A DNA stretch of 62,522 bases, filler included, from an uncultured archaeon (GCA_964442255.1; 3 parts of 3 records of this genome joined end to end with filler, not necessarily neighbours in it); one strand, 5' to 3'; shown: positions 30,001-36,000, counted from the first letter of the whole stretch. Program-made: the numbers.

Positions 30001-33000
30001 AGCCTGAATGAAGAATTAAACGGAAGAATTTTGGTGGACGGGACAATTGAAAAGCCGGAGCCCGGAAACGGGGAGAAACAAAACACGGAAAACGGTTCAG
30101 CCGAATCAGGGGAAAACGGGACAGGGCTGCAGGAATTCGGGCTCACGGAAGAAGAGGGAACAGTTTACGTTTTAGCTTCAATTGCTGGCGCGGTGCTGCT
30201 GGTTTTAATTGCCTGGAAACTCAAAGGATAAGGTAATAAAGGTTATTTTGGGGAATTTCTTTTTAAGCGGTTGTAGTCTAGCCTGGTTAGGACACAAGCT
30301 TGCCAAGCTTGAAACCCGGGTTCAAATCCCGGCGACCGCACTTGCCGGTTTCGCCCGACAGAGACGAGATACGTCAACCCGTCCCTCACTCTGTTCGGTA
30401 TGGGTTATAAATATTGTTAATTACTCGCAGGCTATTTGTTGTCTTCCATTGGGCCGAACAATTTGGTTAAAACCAGTGTGAAAACAACCGCAATCAATGT
30501 TACAGCAATTGCGACAACTGTGAGCGTCATTGCCCCTTCACCCGATTCAATTATGGGCTTCAGCCATTCGGTAATCGCGTCCCTCCACATCAGTCCCGCC
30601 ACAAAAGCCATTGCGCCGGTTGTCAAAACAAGGGACTGTTTTTTGATGTCTTTAATTATGCTCTTCATTTTTGACCCCCTTTAAAAGTACTGTTTAAAGA
30701 AAGAAAAAGTATTTAAAAAAAGCCTGCCCCCAAGTCTTACTGCGCATCCGTGGTCTAGTGGTTAGGATCGAAGCCTTCCATTAACGAAAGTTTAAGTGAA
30801 CAGAAAGTGTTCAAACGGGCTTTCCCGGAGGACAGCTTCTGACCCGGGTTCGAATCCCGGCGGATGCATTTGCCGGCTTTTCCCGGCAGTGGAACCTCCC
30901 ATGCTAACGCATGGAACTGGCTCGGCTTCGCCTCGCATTTGCCAAGTCCGCAGGGCAGGTCCGGTGTCCTACTGCCTCACTAGGTTCGGCAGTAGATATG
31001 CTCGCTAACGCTCGCATTTTACCATTTTCGCGGCAGGGGAGAAATACGTCAGCCCATCGCACAGCGAGGGGTTATAAATAGGGCTTATTTTAACCGCATT
31101 TGCCGGCTTTCCCCGGCAGCGGAATCCCGCCTGCTTGCGGGAGTGGAGTGTGCCCTACTCCATATGGCACTGGCTTGCTGACGCTTGCATTTAAGGGTTT
31201 GACAGCAGAATCTGGATACGTCAATCCATCCCTAAAAGAATAGGCCATAAACATTACTTAAAATGCCAAAACTATTTTGAGTGAATTGAACGGTAAAGTT
31301 GTTCAGCGGTCAGCCTGTTTTTTCCATCAAACCAGTCTAAAACCAAGGAATATGCGCCCTTTTTCATCCTTCTGTCATTTGACCCATCCAAAATCGCTGA
31401 ATAGGCCAAATTCGCACCTGGGTCTTTCTTCCTTCTATTTTTTACTAACCTAAAGTGTGCAGCGGTTAAGCCCATTATTCCTTTTGTTTTCATTATATCC
31501 TCAACTGAAGCGTAACTTCCTTTTCTCAACCCTTTCGCTAGTTTCCGTTGAGCGTCAAAAACATCATGGCTTAATTGTAATCCCGTAACCTTAGTCAAAC
31601 GGGCCATTTCTTTGCGGAGCCTAGCATATTCATTCACATCAGCAAGGGCCGGGTTCCTTCTTTCAAGCTTTACGGAAAGAATATGAAACTTTTTCTTAAG
31701 TTCCTGTATGCGAGCAACATTTCCAGTTACCATTCTTGTCTGACGCTCATAAGCCGCAGATCTTTGTGGGAGTTGCTTGGGTTTTCTGAGCACAATCAAT
31801 CCCTCTCAAAAAAATAATGGCTGTTGTATATAAAAGTTTTTTGGGTTTTTTCTTATTTTTTAAGCTTTTTCACGAGTTCTTCAGCATTCCGCCCCTTGTG
31901 GGGCCCTTTTCCGCGGATCCATTTCAGACACCAATCCAACTAGTTTCTCCTCACGCGCAAGTCTAACTGCTTCCCTTATTCCTGCCTGAAGGACCCGTAT
32001 CTGTGTCTCTCTGCCTTTATCGGCTTGTTCCCTTTGGTTCCTCGCGTGAATTTGGGCTCTTTCAGCAGCTGAAATTCTTTTCGCCAAAACCAATCGGAAT
32101 TAGGGGCTGTTTCAGCTGCTTCTGTTGAAGACTTTCAGCAGCTGAAATTCTTTTCGCCAAAACCAATCGGAATTAGGGGCTGTTTCAGCTGCTTCTGTTG
32201 AAGACTTTCAGCAGCTGAAATTCTTTTCGCCAAAACCAATCCCTCCTGAAAAGGTATTAGGGCAAGGCAGTATATAAAGCTTTTTTCTTTCATATTTTTT
32301 GGGTGATTTTAATGGATTTTTTTGAGGCCGTGGAAAAGCGGAGGTCTGTGCGGGAGTTTAAGGAAAAAGAGGTGGAAGAGGAGAAGCTGCAGAAGATTCT
32401 GGAAACAGTGAACCTTGCGCCGAGCGCAGGGGATTTGCAGGCTTACGAAGTTGTTGTGATTAAAAGCGCGGAAAAAAGGAAGGAGCTGGCTGAAGCGGCT
32501 TTTAACCAGCTGAAGAACTCCAAAACAGAGCCAATTTCCTTGGTGTTTTTTGCAAACCCTGAAAGAAGCGCGCAAAGGTACGGGGAAAGGGGGGAAAAAC
32601 TTTATGCGGTGCAGGACGCGACAATCGCAGCAGCTTACGCGCAGCTGGCTGCAACGGCGCTTGGTTTGGGAAGCGTGTGGATCGGCGCATTTGACCCGGA
32701 GGCAGTGAAAAAAGTCTGCAAGGCTTCGGAAGGGTTAGAGCCTGTGGCGATTATTCAAATCGGTTACCCCGCTGAAAAGCCGGAGAGGGCTCCGCGGAGA
32801 GAGTTAAAGGATTTGGTGAAACGGAAAGAATTCAAATGAAGCCAAAAGAAAAAAGTGCTGTGCAGGGAATTGCGCTGGAAAGAATTTACAGGCTGGCGGA
32901 GTTGGCTGGGCAGGAGTTCAGCGAGCACCCTGAACGGAGCAAAGATTACGCGCAGCTCATTAAAAGGATTGGAATGAGGTGCAACGTGAAAATTCCTTCC

Positions 33001-36000
33001 GAAGTGAGGGAAAAGTTCTGCAAGAAATGCTTTGCTTTTTTGAAGCCGGGGGTGAATGCGGAAGTGAGAGTGAAAGAAAAGGGGTTGGTGGTGAAATGCA
33101 GGGAATGCGGGGCATTCAAGAAAATTAAATTAGAGAAGCCGGAAAAAAAGCTGGTTATAGGGATTACCGGCAGTTTGGGGACAGGAAAAACCGCGGTTCT
33201 CAAGGAATTCGGGGAACTGGGCGCGGAAACAATTCAGGCTGATGAAGTTGCAAAAGAGCTACTGGAAAAAAAGCCAAAGTTAAGGGACAGGATTAAAAGG
33301 CTTTTTGGGGAGAAGGTGTTTAAAGGGCCTGTACTTCAATCCAAAAAATTGGGGGAAATTGTCTTCACGGATTACGGAAAGCTAAGGAAACTGAATGCAT
33401 TGGTTCACCCTGAAGTGAAAAAAGAATTAAGGAGAAGGATTAAGGCAGGCAAAAAAAAGGTGGTGGCGGTTGAAGTGCCATTGCTTTTTGAATCCCGGAT
33501 GAAAGGGTTCTTTGATTTGGTGGTAGTGGTGTGGAGCGAAAAAGAAAAACAGCTTCAGAGAATGAAGAAAAAAGGGCTAAGCGAAAAAGAGGCGCTTAAA
33601 CGGATTAACGCGCAGATGAGGCAAGCGGAAAAGAAAAGGCGCGGAAACATTATAATAGAAAATAATAAGGGCGTGAAGGAACTCAAAAAAAAGGCCTTTG
33701 TTGTCTGGAACGAGGTAGTGGAGGAATTCAATTGAAGGCCGTTTACGCCGGCACGTTTGATCCCGTAACCTTCGGGCACCTGGATGTCGTGGGCCGCGCG
33801 CTTGGGTTGTTTGAAGAACTGATTGTGTTGGTTGCAAAAAACCCGCGGAAAGAGCCCCTTTTCAGTGCGGAGGAAAGGGTGGAATTGCTGGAAAAGGCTT
33901 TGGCAGGAAAAAAGAATGTTAAGGTTGAGGCATTTGACGGTTTGCTGGTGGATTATTTAAAGGAAAAAGGGCTGAAGTTTGTTGTCCGCGGGCTAAGGGA
34001 AATGATTGACTTTGGAAACGAATTCCAGCAGGCAATAACCAACAAAAAACTGAATCCGGAGATTGAAACAATTTTTTTGATGACTTCCCCAAAGTATTTC
34101 TATTTGAACTCTACGCTTGTGAAGGAAGTCGTGAAGTTTGGCGGCCCTGCGGGAGAGTTTGTGCCAAAAGAAGTTGAGGAAGCGCTGAAAAATAAAATGA
34201 AGTGAGTTATTCTTCCCTTGTGTCTTTCCTTATTTGAAACCGCCTTAAATGCTTTTCCACGGTGTTTTTCAGGGCACGCCAGTTTTCCTCTGCAAATGCT
34301 TCCGGGATAAAAAAAGCCCTTAACTGGTGCGCGAATATCCCGCTAAAGCGGGGTTTGCCGTCTGGCTTTCGTTTTGCCTCTTTTTCAGCCCTTTTTTCAA
34401 AAATTTCAAGAAGGTCCAACGCTTTCCGCATAGTTGAAACGCGTTCCTTGCCGGGAAGCTGTTTCAGGGAAAACCTTTGGTGAAAGCCAGCCATTTCAAG
34501 GCCGCGGTTGGCTCTTTCAGCCTCGTCCCTTGAGGCGAGTTTGGGGGGGGTGCTTTCTTTTCGTTGACTCAATTAATTTTCTTCCCTTTGAGCCCGGCTT
34601 TTTAAGTTTCCCGGAAAAGAAATCAAACAGCCTTCTTAAAGGGCCTGGTTTCCTTGTTTTTCTTCTTCCGCGGGGCATAAGCAAACCTATAAAAACCTTA
34701 TTTGGGGGATTTAATATAATATATAAGGGTTTGAAGCTGCTTATATAGGTTGAATTTTTGGTTTTAAAGTGGTTTTTATGGTTAGAGCATATGATGTGCA
34801 CGGAACGGATTTGGTGAAAGGGCTGGCTGAAGAGCTGAAAAAAAATCCCGCCCTAAAGCAGCCTGAATGGGTTGAATGGGTGAAAACCGGCAGGCACAGG
34901 GAAAGGGCGCCCACAGACAGGGAATGGTATTACACGAGAATGGCGTCAATTCTGAGAAGGGTTTACGTTGACGGGCCGGTGGGAACGGAAAGTTTGAGAA
35001 GCTATTACGGGGGAAGAAAGGCAAGGGGAGTCAGAAAGCACAAGGTGTTCAAGGCATCAGGAAAGGTTGTGAGAAACTGTTTGCAGGCGCTGGAAAAAGA
35101 GGGGTTCATCAAAAAAGAAAAAACAGGCAGGGCGATTACAGCAAAAGGAGCAAGCCTTTTAAGCAAAAAATCAAAGGAATTGTTTGAAAAAATGAAGGCG
35201 GAAAAGTCAAAAAAAGCTGAAAGAAAGGCTGTTCCGCAAAAGCCGGTGCCTGAGAAAAAATTTGAGGAAGCTAAAAAGAAAAGCGAAGCGAAAGCAGAGC
35301 CAGTGCCATCAAAGATCCGGCACACAGAAACCGCGGGAAGGCGGGGCTTACCGCCGGATGAAACCGGCAAAAAAGAAAAGGTTGAAGGGCATGGAAGAGG
35401 AGGAATTAAGGAAGAAAAAACTGGAAGAGCTGAAGCAAAAGATGCAGGAAAACCAGCAGCAGCAAAACCAGCAGCTTCAGGCTGAAATGAGGCTTGACGC
35501 GGCAATGAAGCAAATGCTTGAACCGGAAGCCAGGGAAAGGCTTAACCGGGTGAAGCTCGTGAACCGGGAATTGTATGGGGCAGCTGCACAGAATTTGCTT
35601 TACCTTTCCCGTGCCGGGCAAATTGAAGGAAAGCTCTCGGATTCAGGGTTAAAGGAATTGCTGGAAAAAATTTCGGGCTCCACTAAAAAGGATTTCACGA
35701 TAAAAAGGAAATGAAAATGGCAAAAAACAAGGAAGAAGAAAAAAAAGATTTCATGATTTCTGTGCGGGAAAAAATCGGCCCAAGCATCAGCACCGCCCCG
35801 GTTTGGCTTTACCAAAAGGCAAACGAAAGGCTGTGGAACAAGAGGCAAAAAAGGCATTGGAGGGACACGGATTTGGGCGGGCTGTACAGGAAGCACAGGA
35901 AAAAACAGAAAACAGGGGAAAAAAAGAAAATTAAAAGCGGAAAGCACAAAAAGAAAAAAAGGGGCAGGAAATGAAGGCATTCACTGTTTCGTTTCAGGGG

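Follow-up and report, generated by a model that had tools for sequence, protein, structure and literature searches.

An RNase P protein Rpp21–dephospho-CoA kinase fusion conserved within a family of small DPANN archaea

In the genome of an uncultured archaeon, the sole rpp21, which encodes an RNase P protein, runs on in frame into a bacterial-type dephospho-CoA kinase (DPCK, CoaE); to our knowledge, Rpp21 has no link to CoA. The locus raises the question of whether this is one genuine protein and, if so, whether RNase P of this lineage carries a kinase, whether CoA synthesis is tied to RNase P, or whether gene order brought the two together by accident. Here we analyse the locus within a 62,522-nt stretch of DNA (the window; Table 1), together with its counterparts in the 196 genomes of the order.

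Table 1. Features of the rpp21–coaE locus, with positions counted along the window.
Feature	Position	Strand	Basis or remark
Nitroreductase-family gene	32303..32839	+	Pfam Nitroreductase E 5.9e-30; stop overlaps fusion ATG by 4 nt
rpp21–coaE fusion ORF	32836..33735, stop included	+	One ORF; Pfam Rpr2 and CoaE; full-length orthologues in G012–G018
Rpp21 module, residues 1–100	32836..33135	+	Pfam Rpr2 at residues 17–92
Zinc-ribbon ligands C62, C65, C88, C91	33019..33108	+	Codons 33019–21, 33028–30, 33097–99, 33106–08
Lys/Glu-rich linker LEKPEKK, residues 99–105	33130..33150	+	From last zinc-ribbon strand to kinase beta-1
CoaE (dephospho-CoA kinase) module, residues 106–299	33151..33732	+	Pfam CoaE, TIGR00152
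Walker-A P-loop GITGSLGTGKT, residues 109–119	33160..33192	+	Read from sequence
Asp136 codon, second Asp of CoaE 'DxD' motif	33241..33243	+	Aligned to 1uf9
coaD, bacterial-type phosphopantetheine adenylyltransferase (PPAT)	33732..34205	+	TIGR01510 E 4.8e-57, 192.3 bits (cut-off 103.3)
121-aa ORF between coaD and rps19e	34207..34572	-	Without family match
Ribosomal protein S19e gene	34769..35485	+	Pfam Ribosomal_S19e E 7.1e-49
dsDNA-binding (PDCD5-like) gene after S19e	35262..35714	+	Pfam dsDNA_bind E 1.6e-21

First, the 299-residue fusion named in a preliminary description proved to be a single ATG-to-stop open reading frame (ORF; G000:C24:9797-10693), with Rpr2 (E 2.2e-14, 53.9 bits, cut-off 29.3) and, at residues 106–281, CoaE (E 2.2e-43, 148.5 bits, cut-off 27) where they had been placed. 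The Rpp21 module comprises N-terminal helices (residues 3–27 and 32–48) followed by the zinc ribbon (strands at 75–98). The kinase module also matches the NCBIfam dephospho-CoA kinase model TIGR00152 (136.8 bits, cut-off 65.55), and its Asp136, which we take to be the catalytic base, aligns with the second Asp of 'DLD' in Thermus thermophilus 1uf9. As had been claimed, the frame holds the sole Rpr2 and the sole CoaE above cut-off in its genome (93.8% complete), the next-best matches reaching only E 0.02 and E 0.14, respectively; no stand-alone copy of either was found above cut-off in any of the eight fusion-bearing genomes.

Full-length matches (query residues 1–5 to 288–297; 42–51% identity; E 1e-66 to 4.5e-82) were present in seven of the eight other family genomes (G012–G018). 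Outside the family, the matches listed among the order's 196 genomes cover either about residues 1–105 or about 105–295 and never the full length, so both the distribution and the separation of the halves described earlier were borne out. The frame is uninterrupted in eight genomes (nine loci) of four genera and is the only Rpp21 in eight of the nine family genomes. The missing match in the remaining genome, G011, had been listed as a worry; it ceases to be one, since coaD and the gene for ribosomal protein S19e are missing from G011 too, and the fusion region is probably unassembled there. CoaE is above cut-off in 96 of the order's 196 genomes (91 by the earlier count), and the fusion's kinase half is 35–38% identical to named Bacillales CoaE (36–41% in the earlier account). 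Across a 5.8-billion-cluster protein database, PF01121 and PF04032 occur together in just 11 clusters, derived from NCBI, JGI, ENA and Logan sources, and the Rpp21–CoaE architecture was not found in the literature searched. Together, these results show a genuine fusion, conserved within a single family of these small DPANN archaea, that forms a new architecture from two known protein families.

Next, gene order bears on how the fusion arose. Directly downstream, again as described, lies coaD, whose TTG start overlaps the fusion's TGA by 4 nt and whose product has Thermotoga maritima PPAT (1vlh, E 2.8e-50) as its best solved relative. The upstream nitroreductase-family gene does not precede the fusion in other family loci and is an operon partner in its own genome only; further downstream, the dsDNA_bind domain occupies residues 49–148 of its ORF, so a later true start is probable. 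coaE and coaD adjoin in seven of the eight complete fusion loci, and a CoaD-type gene directly follows coaE in seven of eight out-group loci tested by Pfam (L013, L015, L016, L017, L020, L026 and L034; the exception is L022). In 11 of 20 out-group loci, rps19e lies at most 2.5 kb downstream of rpp21, across a slot with zero to two variable ORFs (class III signal-peptide proteins, DUF6498), and the S19e–dsDNA_bind order of the window recurs in out-groups. The family's own order is fusion–coaD–S19e–dsDNA_bind, with S19e downstream of the fusion or coaD in G012, G013, G015 and G018; the S19e gene is the ancestral downstream neighbour of rpp21. Where out-groups hold both halves on one contig, these are 25–130 kb apart. 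The CoaE halves of the fusions fall within the order's CoaE cluster, and monophyly of the 14 fusion rows was not rejected (p-AU 0.43). The fusion probably arose via a change in gene order, and from synteny the events could have run as follows. A bacterial-type coaE–coaD pair, travelling jointly across the order, would have moved beside rpp21, into the variable slot directly 3′ of it in the conserved cluster rpp21–slot–rps19e–dsDNA-binding protein. Loss of the rpp21 stop and the coaE start would have joined the natural C terminus of Rpp21 to the natural N terminus of CoaE through the linker of about seven residues, once, in the family ancestor.

Both halves of the fusion seem to be working. The four Cys, the P-loop residues T111, G112, G117 and K118, D136, H191–P192, L216–L217–E219, R242 and N276 do not vary among the 11 fusions examined; the four Cys are likewise present in each of 11 stand-alone Rpp21 from the order, and Asp136 in each of 40 stand-alone CoaE. 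Among positions at least 80% conserved in the stand-alone proteins, 24 of 27 in CoaE and 22 of 35 in Rpp21 are kept at 80% or more in 13 fusions, whereas the fusion clade departs from the stand-alone proteins at the other 13 Rpp21 positions (F21M, F28W, R37D and N74D among them). Rpr2 scores are 43.5–58.5 bits in fusions and 44.7–61 in stand-alone genes, and CoaE scores 118–160.5 and mostly 97–176, respectively. An AF2 model of the fusion (mean pLDDT 96.2, pTM 0.84; pLDDT at least 90 at 287 of 299 residues) matches Ph1601p (2zae_D) over residues 1–100 (Z 17.0, rmsd 1.1 Å over 95 residues) and DPCK structures over residues 102–299 (2f6r, Z 25.6, rmsd 1.7 over 198 residues; 4i1u, Z 25.1). The linker is modelled at pLDDT ~94–95. 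It is short and nearly fixed in length among 11 fusion proteins, which, together with the high pTM, suggests that the two domains are held in a set arrangement and that the kinase is not loosely attached.

The other RNase P proteins, Rpp29, Pop5 and Rpp30, are separate genes, as stated earlier, and so is the RNase P RNA (97.9 bits). Rpp21 and Rpp29 are a textbook pair. A modelled complex of the fusion with the genome's own Rpp29 scored 0.83 (best of three controls, 0.00), a mark that 116 of 157 solved complexes attain, as do 2 of 215 mismatched pairs; these counts are approximate, the alignments having been our own. Agreement between runs was 100% for the contacts, which all fall within fusion residues 5–49, and the partner's pLDDT was at least 82; since like complexes are solved (2ZAE, 6K0A), the pass shows likeness to these, not binding. 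Given a sole Rpp21, the presence of the other parts, the retained zinc ligands and fold, and the modelled fit to Rpp29, the RNase P holoenzyme probably carries the kinase domain. Residues 1–100 would pair with Rpp29 via the two N-terminal helices, and the zinc ribbon would bind the S-domain of RNase P RNA. PMC6565675 locates Rpp21 between Rpp29 and L7Ae; the kinase domain, of ~22 kDa, might ride on the distal end of each particle as a passenger.

On the CoA side, the reported absences held: the archaeal DPCK family DUF359 and DFP (CoaBC) each occur in none of the nine family genomes. Residues 106–299 would phosphorylate dephospho-CoA, supplied by the translationally coupled CoaD downstream from scavenged 4′-phosphopantetheine; scavenging by PPAT plus DPCK only, and by DPCK only, is described for reduced bacteria in a section of PMC8721197.

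We therefore propose, with a probability of roughly 0.6, a genuine bifunctional fusion protein of single origin in the family ancestor, whose halves keep their ancestral jobs independently. We infer that both activities persist, that the protein enters the holoenzyme and that the halves do not communicate functionally. Counting against this reading are the retention of the kinase without CoaD in G018, the Asn at position 119 in two fusions and the inactive archaeal homologues (all below), along with the 13 altered Rpp21 positions and the apparently set arrangement of the domains. The preliminary description had offered two consequences, of which the first, a kinase domain on RNase P, is well supported by the sole Rpp21, the other RNase P parts, the retained zinc ligands and fold, and the modelled Rpp29 fit. 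The second, a tie between the last step of CoA synthesis and RNase P, has the covalent linkage as its one support. Synteny offers a route by which the fusion could have arisen, CoaE has unrelated fusion partners elsewhere (below), and the RNase P RNA is not reduced (271–383 nt in five family genomes versus 187–423 nt in other families, for matches above cut-off). What had been entered as a caveat, a neutral accident of gene order, is the best-supported reading.

It is unlikely that RNase P has instead co-opted the kinase domain as an integral part, be it a structural one that stabilizes the Rpp21–Rpp29–L7Ae end or a regulatory one that couples tRNA 5′ maturation to metabolic state by sensing ATP or CoA, with CoA synthesis as a second or former function. 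Such a role would suit G018 (99% complete), which keeps an intact-looking fused CoaE domain (131 bits) although it has no CoaD-type gene, its sole PF01467 gene being RfaE-II/RibL-like. The pattern is as compatible with a function outside CoA synthesis as with dephospho-CoA scavenging, and the latter is already known for DPCK-only organisms (PMC8721197, in the section cited). The pTM and near-constant short linker also favour co-option, as does retention in four genera at 42–51% identity, but a fusion can persist without advantage, since un-fusing needs both a new stop and a new start. The clade-specific changes at 13 of 35 Rpp21 positions count for it too, although common descent by itself would produce them. 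Against co-option, the fused kinase keeps 24 of the 27 positions conserved in stand-alone enzymes, which points to ancestral catalysis, and the unreduced RNA leaves no loss for a protein to make good.

We consider it highly unlikely that the kinase is dead in at least some members or that the Rpp21 half has dropped out of RNase P. Position 119 of the Walker-A motif is Thr/Ser in nine of 11 fusions and Asn in two (P0003 and P0004; G017 type), G018 lacks CoaD, and there is a precedent in two archaeal CoaE homologues annotated as DPCK, TK1334 and TK2192, which proved inactive according to PMC6650551. All motifs counted invariant, catalytic and zinc-binding, nevertheless persist, each half is the only copy in eight of eight fusion-bearing genomes, profile scores match those of stand-alone genes and the model is confident at nearly every residue. 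The Rpp21 half does fall below its NCBIfam equivalog cut-off (70.3 versus 162 bits), but because four stand-alone Rpp21 from other families of the order score only 74–80 bits on NF003045 (Rpp21 module, 74.5), the low score is a trait of the order and not of the fusion.

We likewise give little credence to two proteins from one gene, with internal initiation or linker proteolysis freeing CoaE so that RNase P keeps a normal-sized Rpp21. The junction does unite natural ends, the linker is short and charged, and the Val directly ahead of the kinase's opening strand is encoded by GTG in three of eight loci. The other five, however, use GTT or GTA there (GTT in the window), so an internal start is not conserved; across the eight loci the junction has no ATG, GTG or TTG in common, and the linker contains no ATG. 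An internal start would in any case leave the upstream product full-length, and the linker's pLDDT is not that of a disordered tether. An assembly or gene-calling artefact merging adjacent genes is scarcely credible: the genome is a 51-contig draft, the window joins two contigs and a second sample's contigs did not span the junction, but the junction is ~10 kb into contig C24, and the same frame is open in nine diverged loci and in 11 clusters from four sources.

Finally, we compared the fusion with known systems. Stand-alone archaeal Rpp21 (RNase P component 4; Pyrococcus horikoshii Ph1601p 1x0t/2zae, P. furiosus 2k3r/2ki7, Methanocaldococcus jannaschii 6k0a chain G) belongs to the same family (phmmer E 2e-16 to 6e-13) and shares the L-shaped fold, the four-Cys zinc ribbon and, in the model, the helices facing Rpp29; the order's stand-alone genes share the anchor upstream of rps19e. 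Unlike them, the fusion runs past the zinc ribbon into a ~195-residue P-loop kinase, and its clade differs at 13 of their 35 conserved positions. With bacterial CoaE (T. thermophilus TT1252 1uf9, Haemophilus influenzae 1jjv, Escherichia coli 1vhl, T. maritima 2grj), the kinase half shares the TIGR00152 equivalog (phmmer E 1.7e-25 to 1uf9), the fold (Z 22–25), the P-loop, Asp136 and other family-wide positions, and an adjoining bacterial-type coaD; unlike these enzymes, it is archaeal, lacks its own start codon and CoaBC, and has an RNase P subunit covalently N-terminal. Its best structural match, 2f6r, is the DPCK domain of mouse CoA synthase (PPAT–DPCK), which, like the archaeal PPAT–arCOG04076 fusions described in PMC6650551, holds a DPCK within a longer polypeptide. 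There the partner catalyses the preceding step, so those fusions reflect a shared pathway, whereas here the partner is an RNA-processing subunit and PPAT is a separate, overlapping gene. CoaE of Mycobacterium tuberculosis is reportedly fused to UPF0157 (PMC2765170), and that structure (6n39) was among the phmmer matches. With NUDIX–CoaE in the genome G046 and, in protein clusters, CoaE with QueH-like PF02677 and Fpg with CoaE, these cases show that CoaE readily fuses with whichever gene adjoins, the kinase domain staying recognizable each time. None of them involves an RNase P protein; in the Rpp21 case it is a subunit of an essential ribonucleoprotein that carries the kinase at its C terminus.

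The fused gene (G000:C24:9797-10693) is situated on the second contig of the window, roughly 10 kb from its end, and both halves of its product were recognized by Pfam above the curated cut-offs: Rpr2/Rpp21 (PF04032) at residues 17-92, covering profile positions 2-90 of 90 with 53.9 bits (cut-off 29.3), and CoaE (PF01121) at residues 106-281 with 148.5 bits (cut-off 27). The protein also exceeded the cut-off of the NCBIfam dephospho-CoA kinase equivalog TIGR00152 (136.8 versus 65.55 bits). The Rpp21–CoaE fusion reported in the preliminary description holds up on almost all points. 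The NCBIfam equivalog for RNase P component 4 (NF003045; PRK03954) has a cut-off of 162 bits, which was reached neither by the fusion (70.3 bits) nor by its residues 1-100 alone (74.5 bits). Stand-alone Rpp21 proteins from other families of the order likewise scored just 74-80 bits (n = 4), so that the low score reflects the divergence of the order as a whole and the way the model was calibrated, and not the fusion. The scores of both halves are in the range of stand-alone genes. No match to the archaeal dephospho-CoA kinase (DPCK; arCOG04076/DUF359, PF04019) was found on the fusion protein, the best match in the genome (E 0.09) was below the cut-off, and DUF359 was detected in none of the nine family genomes at E ≤ 0.01. 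Nor does the protein have the bifunctional CoA synthase architecture, in which pantetheine-phosphate adenylyltransferase (PPAT) and DPCK share one chain: here CoaD is a separate ORF with its own start. The first two contigs, C23 (1-22939) and C24 (from 23040), are joined across a gap at 22940-23039, and features on its opposite sides need not adjoin.

Coordinates of the rpp21–coaE fusion gene, its neighbours and tRNA genes upstream of it
Feature	Position	Strand	Remarks
rpp21–coaE fusion ORF	32836-33735	+	single frame, 299 codons
coaD, bacterial-type	33732-34205		start overlaps fusion stop by 4 nt; TIGR01510 E 4.8e-57; T. maritima PPAT 1vlh E 2.8e-50
nitroreductase gene			upstream of fusion; overlaps fusion start by 4 nt
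121-aa ORF	34207-34572	-	between coaD and rps19e; no family match
S19e ORF	34769-35485	+	238 aa; domain at residues 7-140
tRNA gene	30267-30340	+	~2 kb upstream of operon
tRNA gene	30744-30868	+	~2 kb upstream of operon; 125-nt match
tRNA-Gly(TCC), genus g2	L009:645-715		
tRNA-Gly(TCC), genus g2	L011:1396-1467		
tRNA-Gly(TCC), genus g2	L012:2459-2531		
tRNA-Gly(TCC), genus g2	L010:2711-2781		

The gene that follows the fusion is the PPAT gene, as had been described. Past its domain, the S19e protein continues into a long Lys/Glu/Ala-rich C-terminal tail, and its ORF overlaps an ORF with a dsDNA_bind domain in another frame. The length of the longer tRNA match in the window suggests an intron-containing tRNA. 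In genus g2 of the family, the fusion gene is preceded at a distance of 33-330 nt by a tRNA-Gly(TCC) gene of the same strand and, still farther upstream, by tRNA-Val(TAC); given this arrangement, the RNase P subunit gene may be co-transcribed with a substrate of its own enzyme.

Gene order across the order points to a simple route by which the fusion could have arisen. In the window and in three other family genomes (G012, G013 and G015) the order is [rpp21–coaE], coaD, S19e, dsDNA_bind. In genomes of the order outside the fusion family (out-groups), a CoaD-type gene (CTP_transf_like in Pfam) directly follows coaE at seven of the eight loci tested (L013, L015, L016, L017, L020, L026 and L034; at the eighth, L022, the downstream ORF is not CTP_transf_like), and ORF maps of most remaining loci show a 157-170-aa ORF abutting coaE. 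Stand-alone rpp21 is found upstream of rps19e and the dsDNA-binding (PDCD5-like) gene at 11 of 20 out-group loci from about ten families, separated from rps19e by zero to two variable ORFs (class III signal-peptide proteins, DUF6498 or none). This gap is an insertion hot-spot of the order (L038, L042, L046, L048 and L050), and its contents, pilin-like class III signal-peptide proteins, DUF6498 and unknown ORFs, vary by family. In the simplest history, the coaE–coaD pair would have landed in the variable slot just behind rpp21, and the intervening rpp21 stop and coaE start would then have been lost, leaving a single frame. At the junction, Rpp21 stops at its natural end, just past the final strand of the zinc ribbon, and CoaE begins at its natural start, three residues ahead of its first strand; a Lys/Glu-rich linker of about seven residues connects them. 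A precursor stage with rpp21 adjoining coaE was not seen in out-groups among the matches listed, where the two genes, when on one contig, were separated by ~25 kb in G153, 52 kb in G172, 60 kb in G106, 72 kb in G056, 107 kb in G021 and 130 kb in G083.

We favour, with a probability of about 0.6, a single origin in which coaE–coaD moved behind rpp21 and gave rise to a bifunctional protein; both modules would keep their ancestral jobs and the kinase would be a passenger of RNase P. The CoaE halves of the fusions lie inside the CoaE cluster of the order and not with bacterial sequences. A single clade of 14 fusion rows was not rejected (p-AU 0.43). Maximum-likelihood CoaE trees placed two stand-alone CoaE of family f13 (G090 and G091) among the fusions, and the best tree of the p-AU analysis also placed the database protein P0044 there, both with weak support; a single clade is thus neither shown nor rejected by these trees. 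CoaE is a promiscuous fusion partner: a 380-aa ORF in the out-group genome G046 (L016:1489-2628, minus strand, on G046:C29) joins NUDIX (residues 54-173) to CoaE (186-362) and is followed by coaD, and public proteins combine CoaE with PF02677 or Fpg with CoaE. CoaE also lies inside 381-383-aa open frames in G036 and G037 (family f8), and a NUDIX gene stands beside rpp21 in family f10 (L041, L043 and L045).

The zinc-ribbon cysteines of the Rpp21 half, C62, C65, C88 and C91 (CxxC...CxxC), are shared without exception by the 11 fusions and the 11 stand-alone Rpp21 proteins compared. The AlphaFold2 model shows the L-shaped fold (helices 3-27 and 32-48, strands 75-98), and residues 1-100 superimpose on P. 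horikoshii Rpp21 (2zae_D) with Z 17.0 and an rmsd of 1.1 Å over 95 residues (1.1-1.3 Å for 2zae_D and 1x0t). The partners are also in place: RNase P RNA (RF00373; G000:C17:9654-9924) scored 97.9 bits in the window's own genome and is present in all five family genomes sampled, Rpp29 of the own genome (106 aa, between SUI1 and S17) scored 69.9 bits, and Pop5 and Rpp30 were each found in 9/9 family genomes. A canonical RNA-based RNase P is therefore expected in the family, and it has no Rpp21 other than the fused one. The Pop5 (PF01900) match of the window's genome, G000:C1:33623-33910, contains one TAG inside the matched stretch; none occurs in the other eight family genomes.

Modelling of the full-length fusion with the Rpp29 of its own genome gave a score of 0.83, whereas the highest of three controls scored 0.00. 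This level was attained by 116 of the 157 solved complexes and 2 of the 215 mismatched pairs tried as benchmarks, counts that are approximate here because the modelling used alignments of our own. All 63 confident contacts of the predicted complex involve residues 5-49 of the fusion, three runs agreed in 100% of contacts, and the pLDDT of the partner was at least 82. Kinase residues do not occur among these confident contacts, which is not evidence against their touching Rpp29. Since like complexes have already been solved (2ZAE and 6K0A), the modelled interface shows likeness to the known Rpp21–Rpp29 pair, not binding.

The family genomes lack other parts of CoA synthesis: CoaBC (DFP) was found in none of the nine. 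A PPAT and a DPCK of bacterial origin, together with the absence of both CoaBC and the archaeal DPCK, point to scavenging of 4'-phosphopantetheine, which CoaD and CoaE would probably turn into CoA. Genome G018 (99% complete) departs from this arrangement. At its locus (L007, G018:C1:15636-19514) rps19e directly follows the fusion after a 97-nt spacer with no coaD between, and a search with CoaD found no CoaD-type gene in the genome. Its single PF01467 gene (G018:C1:490363-490746) is RfaE-II/RibL-like; sister genomes have three to four such genes, and they also have a NadD-type gene. The kinase half of G018 scored 131 bits. Its retention without CoaD fits dephospho-CoA scavenging by a DPCK-only organism, a known pattern (PMC8721197), and would be equally compatible with a domain that RNase P has come to depend on.

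That second possibility belongs to the foremost alternative, that the kinase was recruited into an RNase P function, which we consider unlikely. Three observations are compatible with a kinase working in RNase P and do not require it: the fused domain is kept in G018, which has lost CoaD, the two-domain model looks rigid, and the Rpp21 half carries changes peculiar to the clade. In the more specific forms that can be imagined, the particle would bind ATP, dephospho-CoA or CoA at its S-domain end and so gate tRNA 5' maturation by the CoA or energy state, or the kinase would act on RNA-linked dephospho-CoA, for example on dephospho-CoA-capped 5' leaders released by RNase P; to these we assign a very low probability. 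The kinase domain as a stand-in for lost RNase P RNA elements was rejected, as the family RNA is not reduced: RF00373 matches above cut-off span the whole model and measure 271-383 nt in five family genomes, as against a range of 187-423 nt elsewhere in the order; 71 genomes were sampled and 56 of them gave a match. The proposal in the preliminary description that CoA synthesis is tied to the RNase P protein did not find support as a functional coupling to tRNA processing, which nothing requires.

The alternative that one half of the fusion has decayed we regard as quite improbable. The Walker-A motif GxxxxGK[ST] reads G112-S-L-G-T-G117-K118-T119 in the window protein; T111, G112, G117 and K118 do not vary among the 11 fusions, and position 119 is Asn instead of Ser/Thr in two of them (G017 type). 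Asp136, which follows beta-2 and is the proposed catalytic base of CoaE, is conserved at 100% both in the 11 fusions and in 40 stand-alone CoaE proteins; H191-P192, L216-L217-E219, R242 and N276 are likewise invariant in 11/11 fusions. Of the 27 CoaE positions conserved at ≥80% in the 40 stand-alone proteins, 24 are kept at that level in 13 fusions and the other three at 69-77%. The same comparison for Rpp21, based on 11 stand-alone proteins of the order, gave 22 of 35 positions kept (≥80%) in the 13 fusions; at the other 13, some of the replacements are conservative and some are particular to the clade (F21M, E22D, F28W, R37D, N74D, G81N and others). The whole fusion was modelled by AlphaFold2 with a mean pLDDT of 96.2 and a pTM of 0.84 (64-row alignment), and model residues 102-299 matched the three-domain fold of DPCK structures best (2f6r, Z 25.6, rmsd 1.7 Å over 198 residues; 4i1u, 25.1; 2grj, 23.9; 1jjv, 22.4), with rmsd values of 1.7-2.4 Å over 178-198 residues; adenylate and uridylate kinases scored lower (Z ~14-16). 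According to PMC6650551, the T. kodakarensis CoaE homologues TK1334 and TK2192, annotated as DPCK, proved inactive.

We give similarly little credence to two separate products made from the one gene, a scheme in which the kinase would be freed by an internal start. No conserved start of this kind was found: the junction Val codon is GTT, GTT, GTA, GTG, GTT, GTG, GTT and GTG in eight loci, with no ATG.

An artefact can practically be dismissed, since a six-frame search of the 196 Iainarchaeales genomes recovered the fusion over its full length, as a single open frame of 290-302 aa, in seven of the eight other family genomes (G012-G018), although in a public sequencing sample the four short contigs over the locus leave a hole at 33040-33238 and the domain junction unbridged (one contig, 33481-33821, spans the fusion stop and the coaD start). 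The public runs listed for this DNA were two DNA data sets of one study, the second of which, possibly the source sample, yielded no contigs over the locus; no RNA data set was among them. In other families of the order, the matches listed cover either residues ~1-105 or ~105-295 at separate places, and the distribution originally described, fused in this family and split elsewhere, therefore stands. So does the claim of a sole Rpr2 and a sole CoaE in the genome, where no second match exceeded the cut-off (93.8% complete); across the family, all Rpr2 and CoaE matches above cut-off lie in the fused frame (8/9 genomes each). Among the 5.8 billion clusters of a protein database, only 11 (290-301 aa, 43-51% identical) combine the two Pfam domains, and a search of longer proteins with residues 1-100 gave just three matches, all to this fusion, which is weak evidence. 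In G011 (81% complete), the lone family genome in which the fusion was not found, coaD and rps19e, its neighbours elsewhere, are missing too, so the region is most likely absent from the assembly and not from the organism. G015 carries two fusion copies. The second (L101, G015:C36:10-819) is cut by the end of a 3.7-kb contig and is clearly unlike the copy on contig C2 in sequence; bin contamination is 3%, and the source of this copy may be a co-binned relative and not a duplication.

The fusion was not found in the papers searched. It is a new domain architecture, known from one small DPANN family only, although both of its component families are well known. Its importance lies chiefly in annotation and in what it may tell of the tolerance of archaeal RNase P. 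Because the source names of the 11 public clusters read only 'dephospho-CoA kinase', surveys of RNase P subunits would score Rpp21 as missing, and the enzyme of this family could be mistaken for a reduced one. If incorporated as inferred, the fusion would be a natural experiment on the extra mass tolerated at the distal Rpp29–Rpp21–L7Ae end of archaeal RNase P, and its kinase domain could serve as it stands as a handle in purification of the particle. The case also warns against inferring function from fusions ('Rosetta stone' logic), as gene order alone offers an easy path to the union of two unrelated genes. Finally, CoaD and CoaE of bacterial origin without CoaBC, with one kinase-only genome suggestive of dephospho-CoA scavenging, bear on the host dependence of DPANN archaea; both scavenging by PPAT and DPCK and the DPCK-only pattern have been described for reduced bacteria (PMC8721197).
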